Shown: one piece after another, positions 6,083 through 22,101 of the stretch
Position numbering within the stretch: position 1 is the stretch's first letter
Layout of the letters: each line of letters starts with the position of its first letter
Origin: Minisyncoccota bacterium
Lineage (GTDB): Bacteria > Patescibacteriota > Minisyncoccia > Phycocordibacterales > UBA5272
DNA length: 64,000 nucleotides
Assembly: GCA_046350775.1 (NCBI GenBank)
Contig: JAXLZS010000001.1
Coordinates: 22,353-86,352 of the forward strand
Direction: 5' to 3'
The notes under the pieces: model-generated
Told to the model about the DNA's origin: nothing
What the model saw: only the letters and a program-made list of their open reading frames with translations
Database searches by the model: none
Made by a program: the position numbers and the translations under genes

Positions 6083-7234
6083 TTACTTTTTGATAGTCAA
6101 AGTCATTTTTTCTTCAGCTCCATCAAATAGATTGATCTCAAATTTATATACTTTACCAAGTGAAAGCTCTTGCTTCATCTTTTCTTCATTTTCAAAATCA
6201 GAAATATGTACAAGTCCTGCTACACCTTCTTCAATAGATACTAGAGCGCCATGTTTGTTGAATCTGATGACTACACCATCCACAGTATCTCCTTTTTTGT
6301 ATTTCTTACTTGCGGAAATCCAAGGATTTTCTTTCAATTTTTTCATTGAAAGTGAAATCTTGTCATCTTTGATTTCGATTACTTCTACTTTTACTTTATC
6401 TCCAACCTTAGCATAGTCTTTTGTATTTTCTACAAGACCCCAATCGATCTCAGATTTATGAATAAGACCTTCAACCTCGTCATCAATCTTCACGAAGATA
6501 CCAAAGTCTACGACTCCAGTCACTACACCTTCGAGAACATCGCCAATATTGTATTTAGAGATAATCTTTGTGATGGTCTTTGTATCTTTCTTTTCTTTTT
6601 TAGTATCTTTTTTATCTTCTTTGTTTGTAGAAGAAATTTCTCCAGATACTGGATCAGTAGATTCACTGAAAATAAGCTTTCCTTCTTTTGGAATTGCTGC
6701 AATGATAGTCACAGATATTCTCTTTCCAAGTAGCTTTTTGAGTTCTGAAAGAATCTGATCTTTACTACCATCAGTCACTTTAGGATAATTTTCACCTTTT
6801 AATTGGGATGAAGGAAGGAATCCATTGATACCATTCCAATCCATAATAAGGCCTCCTTTATTTGCCTCTTTGACCACGAGAGAGAGAACTCTTCTTTCTT
6901 TTAGTGCTGATTCAGCCTCACTCCAGACGAGAGCGTGTTTTGCTTCACGAAGAGAAAGGTCTATATATCCGTCTTTATTTTCTCTTAAGATAATTTTTGC
7001 TGAGATAGCATCTCCAATATTTGTCTTTTTGATAAGATCGCGAGCGTTGATATATTCGACACCATAGATGATGCCTGTACCAACTGGTCCGAGATCAACA
7101 TAGACTGCAGTAGGAGTGATAGCTACAACTGTACCTTCAACTATATCATCTTCCTTGATAGGGGTGATAGTATTTAGGATCATTTGTGTATACTCATCCA
7201 CGACTACATTGTTTGTAGGGTTTGTATTTGTCAT
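6083..7234 (-). CDS. rpsA: Ribosomal protein S1-like protein (multiple S1 RNA-binding domains, short form)
   Basis: Repeated S1 OB-fold modules (G.V.G.V..I..FGIFV.I...VEGLIHKSEI) and a lysine-rich linker; 383 aa. Confidence 0.75.
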   Translation of the reverse strand: MTNTNPTNNVVVDEYTQMILNTITPIKEDDIVEGTVVAITPTAVYVDLGPVGTGIIYGVEYINARDLIKKTNIGDAISAKIILRENKDGYIDLSLREAKHALVWSEAESALKERRVLSLVVKEANKGGLIMDWNGINGFLPSSQLKGENYPKVTDGSKDQILSELKKLLGKRISVTIIAAIPKEGKLIFSESTDPVSGEISSTNKEDKKDTKKEKKDTKTITKIISKYNIGDVLEGVVTGVVDFGIFVKIDDEVEGLIHKSEIDWGLVENTKDYAKVGDKVKVEVIEIKDDKISLSMKKLKENPWISASKKYKKGDTVDGVVIRFNKHGALVSIEEGVAGLVHISDFENEEKMKQELSLGKVYKFEINLFDGAEEKMTLTIKK

Positions 7235-7354
7235 ATTTTTGTTTAATTCCTATCTGTGTCAAAAATATAAATAGATATCTAAATATTCATTATGTATTTT
7301 TGGTCTAATCAGATAGACAAGTACTATAACATAAAAAGGGGATTTTGCAAAATA

Positions 7355-8074
7355 AAAATCCCGCATTAAATGCGGGATTGCTTTTGAACTATTGACTTAT
7401 CTTACTCAGACTTACCCATAGATAAGGGCTTGCAATTTTGGGTTGCAGTGATGAGTAATAAGAGAAAATAATTGTATACTAAATAAACAAAAAAGTAAAA
7501 ATCTCCTTTTCTTGAATTCTCTTCGTAGAAAGCAGAGGTGAAGGAGATAAAACCTTATCATCATTTTTATTATATTATTTTAAAATAAGTCAAGTATTAA
7601 TAAATCAGTACATGATTTATAAATTATAAAAATAAACCCCCAAAAAAAGGGGTTCGGTTCTGAAAGTATTTTTTCTGTTACGATTCTCCGAAGTTTTTTG
7701 GATGGGGAAGAAAGAAAGAATCGCCAGCTTTGATATTTGTACTTAATTTTACCAGCCCAACTTACAAATTAATTTGTCTTGAGTTTCGCGAGACTCAAAT
7801 GGATTGGGTTCCGAGTTTTTTCTTTTTTTAAATGTCAGTTTGACTGAGAGGATGCCTTTTAGTGAATTTTACCCTAAAAGACATCCTTCAGCGGCCGGCA
7901 GATTACAGATTATAATATACAAAACTTTTTTGGTCTTTTTTAAGACCGGGAGCGCAATCGCTTGCGCGGAGAATTTTTTTCATTTTCTCTTGTTTTTTGT
8001 TTAAACAACAACATTGTTGAAAGGTCAACTCTCAACTACTTTTATATCTTAGCACAATACAATTTATTTGTCAA
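7355..8074 (-). ncRNA. Candidate non-coding RNA locus (one or two minus-strand transcription units; identity unresolved)
   Basis: About 900 bp lies between the S1-like gene and recA with no credible ORF. Minus-strand sigma70-like promoter: TTGACA (8069-8074 rc), 17-nt spacer, TAAGAT (8046-8051 rc). Minus-strand intrinsic terminators at 7634-7654 (cccccaaaaaaaggggtt) and 7355-7379 (aaaatcccgcattaaatgcgggatt). Many internal hairpins. Confidence 0.3.
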
Positions 8075-8115
8075 GTATTTTGTGCTAAAAATAGGGGATT
8101 TATAGATATATAACT

Positions 8116-8145
8116 AAAAATACCCTTATAAATCAAGGGTATTTT
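8116..8145 (-). terminator. Intrinsic terminator downstream of recA
   Basis: aaaaatacccttataaatcaagggtatttt: 9-bp stem plus T-run on the minus strand immediately after the recA stop. Confidence 0.6.
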
Positions 8146-8172
8146 AAGGATTATTTAGAGATAAATTATTTT

Positions 8173-9267
8173 TTATTCTTCTGGATTTTCATCGTCCTTT
8201 GACTCATCGTGTGACGGTGCAAAATCAAGACCGCCACTTTCAAGATTTTTTCTGATTTCTTTTTCGATTTCTTTTGAAATTTTTGGATTTTCTTTTAAGA
8301 AAGTACGCGATGCGTCATATCCACGACCAAGTTTCACTTCACCATAATTATAGCTGGTACCAGACTTTTCTATTATCTTAAATTTTTCTCCGAGTGCGAG
8401 TAGCTCTCCAGCATGACTGATACCTTCACCATACATGATATCGAATTCAGTAGACTTGAATGGTGCAGCGACTTTATTTTTGACAACTTTTACCTTGGTG
8501 CGAGCTCCTAGCACATCGTCTCCTTTTTTAATTTGAGCAGTCTTTCTAATATCAAGTCTGACAGATGAATAAAATTTCAAAGCTTTTCCTCCTGGTGTAG
8601 TCTCAGGATTGCCAAACATGACACCAATTTGCATTCTGATCTGATTAATGAAAATTATTACAGTCTTTGATTTGTGAGCGATAGCTGTGAGCTTTCGGAG
8701 AGCTTGTGACATGAGGCGAGCTTGTCTTCCGACATGAGCTTGAGACATGTCTCCTTCTATTTCTGCTTGAGGAGTCAGTGCCGCCACAGAGTCGATGACT
8801 AGCACATCTATTTTTCCAGAGCGGACAAGGGTCTCAGCGATGTCGAGGGCTTGCTCGCCATTGTCTGGTTGAGATATGAGAAGCTCATTAATTTTGATAC
8901 CAAGCTTTTTTGCATATTCTGGATCCATGGCGTGCTCAGCATCAATAAAGGCACAAGTGCCTCCCATCTTTTGAGCTTCAGCGATGACATGAAGAGTCAA
9001 AGTTGTCTTTCCGGAAGACTCTGGACCAAAGATTTCGATGATTCTTCCTCTTGGTAGTCCGCCAACTCCGAGTGCGAAGTCTAGACCGATTGATCCTGTA
9101 GATACAGCACCAATGTCTACTTTTGGAGTTTCTCCCAATTTCATGATAGCTCCTTCGCCAAATTTATTTTGTATTTCTTTTAATAGCTCGTCAGAATTTA
9201 CTTTCTTTCCTTCCTCTTTTACTCCTACTACTTTTTTTGCTTTCACTACTTTCTTTTTTAGTGCCAT
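8173..9267 (-). CDS. recA: Recombinase RecA
   Basis: Walker [14 protein letters not shown] and the RecA signature [13 protein letters not shown]; lysine-rich N-terminal extension. Confidence 0.95.
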
Positions 9268-17779: not shown

Positions 17780-18334
17780 AAGGTATTTATCCAGTACAAG
17801 TTCAGTATTTCTTGCGAACAGGTAGCCAATCAGCTACTTTTCCATCCCTCCTGTCGGTATCTGTAGTATATAATTTTTTAATTAAAAAAGTCAAATACTT
17901 TTTCCACAGATCTTAACATGGCTAAAAAGTCTTATAAAACTAGCTTTTTATTCTAAACGGTAAAGAATGAGAAGATAATTATCTTTTTACTAGAATTTGC
18001 TTGCATTTTTTTTTCGGCTATGATAAGATACTAAAACCTAAATATGTTAAATAAAAATCAATTGAAAAGCAGCTAAATCAGAAGTGTTCTGTTCTAGCCG
18101 CTTTTAAAAAAGCGGTTTTATTTTTCAAAAATATTTAGTCTCGTAATTTGTAAACAGAATCCCATAGCATAGTCAATTTAGTGTCCCAAACATTTGGGGT
18201 CTTTTCAGACGATGTATATGGATGTGAAAATAAAGGTAAAAATATACTGTAAATCACTCATTTAAGTAAAATTAAGTGAGTCAAAAAATAAAAATAAAAT
18301 ATTTTCAGGCAGCGGTGCCGTAGAAAATATAAAT

Positions 18335-21614
<3,280 letters not shown>

Positions 21615-21895
21615 ATTGATTTTTATTTCAGATTTTTATTTTATTGTTCACATCCTGTTTACTTCTGAATTCTAGAAATTATTTTTTTGAGTTAGTTTTT
21701 AATTAATTTATTAACTTAATTTTTAGAATTCAGGAGTGAACTACACCACGGTCTGACTTAAGATTATTGTTTGGGAGTTGGAGATATATTTCTTTCAAAT
21801 CTATATCTGCAACTCACTGAAGAGTGAAGTATTAATAATTCTTTTGTCAGCCGTGACCTAATTATGTTATGCAGGATTCTAACTCAAAATATTGT

Positions 21896-21971
21896 GGTGA
21901 GATAGCTCAGTTGGTTAGAGCATCAGTATTGCATACTGAGGGTCACTGGTTCGAGCCCAGTTCTCTCCGCA
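21896..21971 (+). tRNA. tRNA-Ala (anticodon UGC)
   Basis: Cloverleaf: acceptor ggtgaga/tctctcc, D-arm gctc-agttggtta-gagc, anticodon arm tcagt-attgcat-actga (UGC at 34-36, U33, A37), T-arm actgg-ttcgagc-ccagt. Position 3:70 is U:U rather than the canonical Ala G3:U70; no CCA encoded. Confidence 0.8.
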
Positions 21972-21986
21972 ATATATTTTGAGTAT

Positions 21987-22101
21987 TCTGTTCTCCCGAT
22001 TCAGATGAAGGGTAACACACCATCTCATTTCGAACTGGATCGTGAAGACTTCACTCAGCGATGGTAGCTTTCGAGCAAGAGTAGTTTTTCGGGAGAACAG
22101 A
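21987..22101 (+). rRNA. rrf: 5S ribosomal RNA
   Basis: Helix I: tctgttctcccga pairs with tcgggagaacaga. Conserved loop C/E segments ccatctcatttcgaactggatcgtgaagacttcactcagcgatggtag and agagtag. Length about 115 nt. Confidence 0.85.

Follow-up and report, generated by a model that had tools for sequence, protein, structure and literature searches.

What, if anything, is encoded in the 938-bp gap (7235-8172) between recA (8173-9267, minus strand) and the gene for an S1-like protein (6083-7234, minus strand)? The gap lies in a 64-kb stretch of DNA, the whole of which we call the window, from a low-GC candidate-phyla-radiation bacterium whose nearest genomes are metagenome-assembled genomes (MAGs) of Patescibacteria; its S1-like protein is 100% identical to that of a Candidatus Paceibacterota MAG at NCBI, encoded on a 614-kb contig. 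Bacteria of this radiation have tiny genomes with short intergenic regions, and because of this a gene-free gap of 938 bp stands out. An earlier reading of the sequence alone had proposed that the gap has no plausible open reading frame (ORF) and that its minus strand carries one or two stable RNAs of 400 and 280 nt, possibly divergent or novel. Here we propose that the longer unit, RNA1, may be a gene in its own right, whose product would be a structured non-coding RNA of some 410 nt representing a new, lineage-restricted, accessory and modular family. We give this reading an even chance.

A predicted RNA gene downstream of recA

The sigma70-type promoter TTGACA-17-TAAGAT that the sequence-only reading had placed at 8046-8074 on the minus strand is there, with TG before its -10 element, and so are the two factor-independent terminators, both followed by U-tracts, at 7655..7634 (T1) and 7379..7357 (T2). 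Promoter-like sites between 6000 and 9500 occur at chance level (12, against 12.0 +/- 3.7 in shuffles), so the match to this promoter, P1, means little by itself and must be judged by its conservation. At least 10 genomes retain P1, with its sequence and a nearly fixed distance from the recA terminator. Its -35 element lies 51-53 nt from the 3' arm of the recA terminator in nine of them (the window and the related loci L018, L001, L004, L028, L013, L002, L030 and L005) and 43 nt from that terminator in L012, and P1 is also found upstream of the RNA of L006. Terminator-like sites in the same interval are enriched, with 9 found where shuffles have 2.0 +/- 1.4. The -35 element of P1 is bracketed by a 16-nt inverted repeat (81% complementary, 8049-8064 / 8073-8088); an operator, which it resembles, was rejected because the repeat is not conserved in L018.

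The features of this unit, all on the minus strand, are the following.

8114..8148, minus: intrinsic terminator hairpin of recA (AAAAUACCCUU...AAGGGUAUUUUU), inverted repeat I4, kept in relatives directly after recA
8046..8074, minus: promoter P1; -35 TTGACA at 8074..8069, 17-nt spacer, TG-extended -10 TAAGAT at 8051..8046
7626..8039, minus: RNA1, putative structured non-coding transcript of about 410 nt with inferred ends, proposed from fold z-scores and from homologs in L018, L030 and partly L006
8016..8036, minus: 5' hairpin H1, at the start of RNA1
7903..7983, minus: 26-codon ORF (MKKILRASDCAPGLKKDQKSFVYYNL), probably not coding, overlapping hairpins A and B
7952..7967, minus: hairpin A, inside the 26-codon ORF
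7932..7947, minus: hairpin B, inside the 26-codon ORF
7894..7901, minus: island I1, CUGCCGGC, 5' strand of the long-range helix Pa, whose partner GCUGGC is at 7728..7723
7850..7886, minus: predicted hairpin Pb, 13-bp stem GGAUGUCUUUUAG / CUAAAAGGCAUCC
7806..7818, minus: island I2, AAACUCGGAACCC, containing the 5' strands of stems P0 and Pc
7756..7808, minus: three-way junction, Pc (CCCAAU/GUUGGG) enclosing Pd (7798..7779) and Pe (7777..7764)
7736..7755, minus: island I3, CUGGUAAAAUUAAGUACAAA, predicted mostly single-stranded
7681..7723, minus: 3' hairpin CGAUUCU...AGAAUCG, preceding T1; L018 has a different hairpin there
7625..7655, minus: terminator T1, GAACCCC-U7-GGGGGUU with U-tract (hairpin 7655..7634), 3' end of RNA1

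Transcription from P1 would start near 8039. The fold predicted for RNA1 (8040..7630, minus strand) is far more stable than those of shuffled sequences (z = -5.57, and z = -5.80 without the terminator), and the plus strand of the same region gives z = -2.08. Moreover, the G-U pairs of Pa, Pb and Pc become C-A mismatches on the opposite strand. As modelled, RNA1 is strongly and strand-specifically structured. The three additional hairpins noticed before are recovered here as Pd (7798..7779), Pb (7886..7850) and hairpin A (7967..7952). Of the features expected of a stand-alone non-coding RNA gene, RNA1 has its own predicted promoter, its own intrinsic terminator and no conserved reading frame.

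RNA1 in related genomes

Clear homologs of RNA1 are present in two related Paceibacteria genomes, L018 and L030, and a partial one in L006. L018, whose S1 protein is 95% identical to that of the window, has P1 and an RNA1 homolog of similar length with its own terminator, and has no RNA2 (the 280-nt unit, see below). The two RNAs are 64% identical over positions 26-437 of the window gap, with an 87-column block (about 85 nt) that reaches 86%. Folded independently, the cores from the window and L018 gave the same five helices: Pa, Pb, and Pc enclosing Pd and Pe. Pa reads GCCGGC/GCUGGC in the window and GCCGGG/CCCGGC in L018, with one compensatory and one one-sided change, and Pc reads CCCAA/UUGGG in both folds. 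In support of this shared structure, a covariance model built from the window core and its structure found L018 at 50.4 bits over the full length, compared to 32.0 bits over positions 64-171 for a sequence-only model of the same core.

L030 belongs to another lineage (S1 84% identical to the window). It carries CUGCCGGG, AAACUCAGAACCC (I2) and GGGCUAGUAAAGUUAAGUAAAAAA (I3), the last two identical to L018 letter for letter, and its I1 matches that of L018 at 11/12 positions. The I1 core CUGCCGG is found in the window, L018 and L030. I2 reads AAACUC(A/G)GAACCC in these three genomes and AACUAGGUAUCCC in L006; the I3 of the window is 17/20 identical to those of L018 and L030, which agree with each other at 20/20. 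No partner for Pa was found in L030.

The helices around the islands keep their positions. At the place of Pb a stable hairpin stands both in L018, with a related stem, and in L030, with an unrelated one, and the segments containing it are well below their shuffles (z = -6.75 in the window, -3.93 in L018 and -4.83 in L030). The distal segments, which hold the junction, are weaker (z = -1.5 to -4.0), and L030 has a single distal stem there in place of two. A 5' hairpin of differing sequence occupies the position of H1 in L018, L030, L002, L013 and L034, and terminators of other sequence stand at the T1-equivalent position in L018 and L030. L006 (S1 82%) matches the RNA1 covariance model weakly (17 bits, E = 0.04); folded alone, it forms the three-way junction seen in the window and L018 folds, with different helix sequences. 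Its segment corresponding to Pb gives z = -3.03, and the hairpin there may be the 5' hairpin of L006 instead of Pb.

A search of the window and of 241 kb of related loci gave no further copies of RNA1. Note that in the RecA-based search for nearer relatives, clustering at 90% merged them, and that looking up the exact S1 and RecA of the window returned nothing.

A strain-variable cassette site

The order recA-gap-S1 is retained in all the relatives examined, with gaps of 211 to 1014 nt. Only two blocks of the gap are common to them, about 100 nt after recA (terminator and P1) and about 120 nt before S1, and the middle part differs from genome to genome. What follows P1 falls into several types.

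RNA1 domain after P1: window, L018, L030; in part L006
Motif X after P1: L001, L002, L004, L013
Other bodies after P1: L012/L026, L034
About 35 nt only after P1: L028

Over the whole gap, L030 and L002 have about 86% identity. The 5' ~190 nt of their RNAs and the terminators are shared, and the internal ~190 nt in between is unrelated. Small protein cassettes occur at the same gap in other genomes: 81 aa in L019 (L019:3596-3841; no Pfam family), 169 aa with a hydrophobic N-terminus in L008 (L008:5368-5874), and 58 aa in L002 (L002:5560-5733) and L030 (L030:2069-2245), the last with its own promoter-like site by sequence inspection. Eight metagenome contigs from different samples (L003, L024, L025, L027, L029, L031, L032 and L033) terminate inside or at the edge of the gap, which fits assembly breaks caused by strain-level variation there.

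Motif X is an element of about 75-90 nt placed just before the terminator of the P1-driven RNA.

L001:5548-5626: motif X
L004:5595-5667: motif X
L013:1035-1118: motif X
L002:5340-5429: motif X

Its core, GACAGARUAA....YUCUGNGAAUC, lies inside three stacked helices. On the raw MAFFT alignment 19 pairs are 100% paired in 76 cells and 10 of them change on both sides; with the partners slid, pairing falls to 24-47% of the cells and two-sided changes to 1-2 pairs, and 0/500 shuffles reach the observed values. The outer helix has a 5' strand that doubles as the loop of a GGG...CCC hairpin, and motif X could thus form a pseudoknot or act as a structural switch. It had no match in Rfam and was not found in the window or in viral contigs.

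The second unit of the window, RNA2, lies between T1 and the S1-like gene.

7349..7600, minus: RNA2 unit, with weak promoter, 5' hairpin and terminator T2
7569..7593, minus: RNA2 promoter; TTGACT at 7593..7588, a spacer of 13 nt only, TATAAT at 7574..7569
7501..7548, minus: RNA2 5' hairpin AUCUCCUU/AAGGAGAU
7357..7379, minus: terminator T2 with U-tract, end of RNA2

Of the two stable RNAs proposed, this one did not stand as the 400-nt unit did, with its promoter, terminator, strand-specific fold and homologs. The RNA2 fold (7633..7350, minus strand) has z = -4.88 with its terminator and z = -1.96 without it (6/200 shuffles as stable; opposite strand -0.22), and its consensus-fold z (alifold) on the raw alignment is not strand-specific. 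A homolog (67% identity) is found only in L019-L023, where the promoter is TTGATT-16-TATAAT. Because the fold signal is mostly terminator, the promoter spacer is 13 nt and only one other genome type has it, RNA2 is poorly supported as a stable RNA and is not convincingly structured. We read it as one more small cassette, broadly of the kind of RNA1, that is probably weakly expressed or decaying in this genome.

RNA1 and RNA2 are far more diverged than their flanks. The block upstream of S1 is 86% identical to the window in L018 and nearly identical in L019, compared to 64-67% for the RNA1 and RNA2 homologs, which suggests an exchange of diverged alleles instead of simple vertical descent. On this comparison the locus is a strain-variable cassette site, and RNA1 appears as accessory and modular, not as a housekeeping RNA.

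Is RNA1 a remnant?

Several observations weigh against RNA1 as a functional RNA family. It is found clearly in three genomes (the window, L018 and L030) and partly in one more (L006), all at one locus, and the covariation statistics are thin. The comparison with syntenic relatives, which had been suggested before and which covered only 3-4 sequences, returned the same architecture in independent folds, but the consensus-fold z on the unedited MAFFT pair alignment is only -1.41 (not significant for RNA1); raw MAFFT alignments put the variable hairpins out of register. A first hand count of 6 compensatory pairs was too generous: what was taken for Pd in L018 is another hairpin in a different register, and the innermost pair of Pe, which had been counted as compensatory, is sterically impossible with its 2-nt loop. 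The covariance model built from the window alone does not reach L030. As for a partner, the complement of I3, tried as an antisense seed, is not enriched in the window (10 matches, 10.95 expected), and no target was found. Finally, L019-L023, whose S1 is 99% identical to the window, do not have RNA1: a clean deletion of 432 nt, bounded by short TTG repeats, took it out together with the -35 element of P1. They retain the RNA2 homolog, followed by the unrelated 81-aa ORF. L028 and L005 keep P1 with almost no RNA body. Since a near-identical strain lacks RNA1 and these two are nearly bodiless, RNA1 is dispensable and could be drifting.

These last observations lead to the alternative that the gap is a hot spot of cassette gain and loss, and that RNA1 and RNA2 are left-over promoter and terminator frames around drifting, functionless DNA, whether it is transcribed or not. 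The variable gap length with only its two ends in common, the loss of RNA1 in L019 and of its body in L028, the unrelated small ORFs at the same site, the divergence of both RNAs relative to the S1-upstream block, and the short promoter spacer and weak terminator-free fold of RNA2 would all fit such a history. Drift, however, would erase the identity of the islands and the persistence of the hairpins. L018 and L030 have I2 and I3 without a single difference and an almost identical I1, despite unrelated stems and S1 lineages at 95% and 84% to the window; hairpins of new sequence stand at unchanged positions, every one well below its own shuffles; and RNA1 without its terminator keeps its z of -5.8. 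This counts against a neutral remnant, which we consider unlikely.

Is RNA1 a leader of the S1-like gene?

RNA1 is on the same strand as the S1-like gene and directly upstream of it, and P1 could be an upstream promoter of that gene, with RNA1 and RNA2 as a long regulatory leader and their terminators as attenuators that, for example, sense S1 or translation capacity through the short A-rich ORF. The conservation of P1 even where almost no RNA body is left (L028, L005) would agree with this, as would the short ORF near the 5' end in five relatives, in the A-rich context lacking a Shine-Dalgarno (SD) sequence that is typical of this genome; in L013 the terminator of the motif-X RNA directly abuts the S1 promoter block. 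However, the S1-like gene has a strongly conserved promoter of its own downstream of T2.

7235..7351, minus: own promoter and 5' untranslated region (UTR) of the S1-like gene; TTTGCA at 7351..7346, TG-extended TATAGT at 7328..7323, A/U-rich 5' UTR of about 80 nt; outside both RNAs

This block (7235-7351) is the best conserved non-coding block of the region, with 72-86% identity by blastn in every relative that retains it. Moreover, the short-gap relatives L007, L009 and L010 lack P1 and L019 has lost its -35 element, the unrelated 58-aa gene cassette stands between the RNA and S1 in L002 and L030, two strong terminators follow each other in series, and no conserved alternative pairing that competes with T1 was found. 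We therefore regard a cis-acting leader as improbable. A riboswitch or attenuator was likewise rejected, as one relative has another unit downstream than the next, the S1-like gene does not depend on P1 for a promoter and, by inspection, there is no conserved competing helix. The block of about 120 nt upstream of S1 is itself a candidate autoregulatory leader of S1, and its 5' UTR contains a small hairpin, GUCUA-UCUGAU-UAGAC.

Does RNA1 encode a peptide?

The claim that the gap has no plausible ORF was essentially right: the longest ORFs have 66 aa (plus strand), 50 aa and 41 aa (both minus strand), and none has coding-type conservation. The 26-codon ORF near the start of RNA1 raises the possibility that the transcript is the mRNA of a basic peptide of 20-27 residues (MKK...) and the structured rest its 3' UTR. 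ATGAAAAAA starts an ORF of 26, 20, 27, 25 and 12 codons in the window, L018, L030, L002 and L034, and in the first four it stops before the I1 island; L030 and L002 differ here by two in-frame 3-nt indels. The missing SD sequence is uninformative, as this genome hardly uses such sequences. Against coding, the frame shifts relative to homologous landmarks of the RNA (at the loop of hairpin B, 0 in the window and 1 in L030; at I1, 1 in the window, 2 in L030 and 0 in L018), and because of this the ORF is not a conserved coding sequence. The peptides share little beyond MKK, the changes in hairpins A and B inside the ORF keep the RNA pairing and not the residues, tblastx similarity between RNA1 homologs is equal in all six frames, and Pfam and NCBIfam had no match for any of the short ORFs. 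The 26-codon ORF is probably not coding, and a small-protein mRNA seems to us quite improbable.

Two related candidates were rejected. The gap is not a pseudogene or otherwise of coding origin, as the gap ORFs of relatives (169, 58 and 81 aa) do not match the gap of the window and tblastx has no frame preference. A type I toxin-antitoxin system does not fit: the short ORF of RNA1 is basic, not hydrophobic, and the 50-aa hydrophobic ORF of RNA2 has no counterpart with ATG in L019, where, by inspection, homologous stretches are in different frames.

Known RNA families and mobile elements

At gathering score, Rfam 15 has no family in the gap of the window or of nine relatives, and permissive searches (E <= 10, 7100-8300), which covered three gaps, returned nothing relevant. 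The best sub-threshold match was Trp_leader (29 bits, cut-off 41), driven by terminator T2, and RAGATH-19 reached 24 bits (cut-off 85.6). The earlier reading had matched no signature of transfer-messenger RNA (tmRNA), RNase P, signal recognition particle (SRP) or 6S RNA by eye, and this held up. For tmRNA, ARAGORN found three transfer RNAs (tRNAs) and no tmRNA in the window, and there was no Rfam tmRNA match in the gap at E <= 10. RNase P RNA of types A and B had no match at gathering score, at E <= 10 on 7100-8300 or in the gaps of relatives; as an essential gene it would also be at odds with the absence of RNA1 from L019-L023 and with the other domain at this place in L002. 6S RNA had no match at E <= 10, and the predicted fold is multi-branched and ~410 nt long; SRP RNA had no Rfam match at E <= 10. 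A very divergent housekeeping RNA of these four kinds, missed by the Rfam models, has in its favour a length within the range of RNase P RNA and tmRNA and the fact that Rfam finds none of the four in the 64-kb window, but this window is about 1/10 of the 614-kb contig with the identical S1 protein, so such RNAs are expected elsewhere, the permissive filters and ARAGORN found none here, and since RNA1 is lost from the strain with 99% S1 identity and replaced by another domain in close relatives, a misfit for an essential RNA, this explanation is very unlikely.

The divergent or novel character suggested for the 400-nt unit is thus borne out as far as Rfam goes, with homologs restricted to the lineage, and such RNAs were not found described in the literature for this lineage. 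A miniature inverted-repeat transposable element or other repeat was rejected, as neither the 64 kb searched of this genome nor the 241 kb of related loci has a second copy, and the RNA1 indel boundaries have no terminal inverted repeats. The gap contains no tandem or interspaced repeats, and so no CRISPR- or TIGR-like array. Viral contigs gave zero matches to three conserved patterns, phage collections gave no match, and plasmids gave only 73-nt AT-rich chance matches in three Lawsonia records.

Other observations in the window and relatives

In the 64-kb window an SD-like 4-mer at -20..-4 precedes 2/43 long ORFs, compared to 15% of random 17-nt windows, so that SD sequences are nearly absent; the start codons of long ORFs stand in A-rich contexts. 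The 23S ribosomal RNA (rRNA), within 18348-22098, spans 3256 nt against a model of 2925 nt and carries insertions; on its 3' side are tRNA-Ala(UGC) at 21896-21969 and then 5S rRNA at 21991-22098, and no 16S rRNA lies within the window. About 70 nt upstream of the 23S rRNA, on the plus strand (18266-18278), is GTAAAATTAAGTG, one mismatch from I3; the number of such matches is at chance level. Downstream of S1, L028 has an inserted 462-aa gene (L028:4348-5736) with a faint reverse-transcriptase (RVT_1) match, at a place that in other relatives holds just a small ORF and pth.

Discussion

Each of the three alternatives, a neutral remnant, a cis-acting leader and a small-peptide mRNA, conflicts with at least one observation. 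If RNA1 is a stand-alone RNA gene, RNA polymerase would start close behind the recA terminator, at P1 with its extended -10 element, and stop at T1, an intrinsic terminator. Folding and comparison suggest a 5' hairpin, two small hairpins and then a core domain, in which the islands CUGCCGG, AAACUCRGAACCC and CURGUAAARUUAAGUA would be held by helices that keep their positions while their sequences change. The core appears to be a module, the same frame of promoter, 5' hairpin and terminator carrying elsewhere motif X, other bodies or none. RNA1 would act in trans as an accessory, not essential, RNA, and its single-stranded islands could be the surface at which a partner binds, with a protein more likely in that role than an mRNA.

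OLE, ROOL, GOLLD and raiA-type RNAs are several hundred nt long, with many helices, conserved single-stranded islands, a restricted range and unknown function. RNA1 resembles them in size, in its multi-helix architecture, in having islands between covarying or replaceable helices and in its restricted taxonomic range. It differs from them in that it matches none in sequence or structure in Rfam 15, is known from one locus in only four genomes, can be missing or replaced when near-identical strains are compared, and has a core for which unrelated domains stand in on the same frame. With genes for trans-acting bacterial small RNAs it has in common the sigma-70-type promoter, 5' hairpin, U-tract terminator and intergenic site, as well as fast sequence turnover and strain-level presence or absence; however, at ~410 nt, heavily folded and with a three-way junction, it far exceeds typical base-pairing small RNAs in size and structure, and no complementary target of the conserved island I3 was found in the window. 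6S RNA, a rod of ~180 nt with a central bubble, is an abundant regulatory class with poor sequence conservation that is detected mainly by structure; RNA1 is like it a stand-alone gene, but twice the size and multi-branched. Riboswitch and attenuator leaders are also structured domains followed by a terminator upstream of a gene on the same strand, and motif X looks aptamer-like, since its three stacked helices covary and its internal loop is conserved. In relatives, however, what lies downstream of the RNA varies (S1, the 58-aa ORF cassette or another small RNA unit), and no anti-terminator pairing was identified.

A bolder proposal treats the P1 transcript as a scaffold RNA. Its conserved promoter, 5' hairpin and terminator would frame one of several payload domains (the core of RNA1, motif X or others), each well conserved and folding independently, which recombination swaps among co-occurring Paceibacteria populations. 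We think this rather unlikely. If true, the recA-S1 gap would be a hypervariable RNA locus under diversifying selection, equivalent at the level of RNA to a variable island for defence or interaction, or else a collection of alternative sensors for ligands or proteins. Either would be an RNA gene organisation of a kind not described so far.

To our knowledge, almost nothing is known about the regulatory and structural RNAs of candidate-phyla-radiation bacteria. The RNA1 core and motif X are concrete covariance-model seeds for a wider search, and the presence or absence of RNA1 at strain level offers a natural comparison for metatranscriptomes. In close relatives, one promoter and terminator frame carries domains that are unrelated to each other and each conserved, a pattern that suggests that these RNAs evolve as modules, with cassettes being exchanged. 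Provided that they are transcribed, RNA1 and motif X would count as some of the earliest descriptions of lineage-specific structured RNAs in Paceibacteria.

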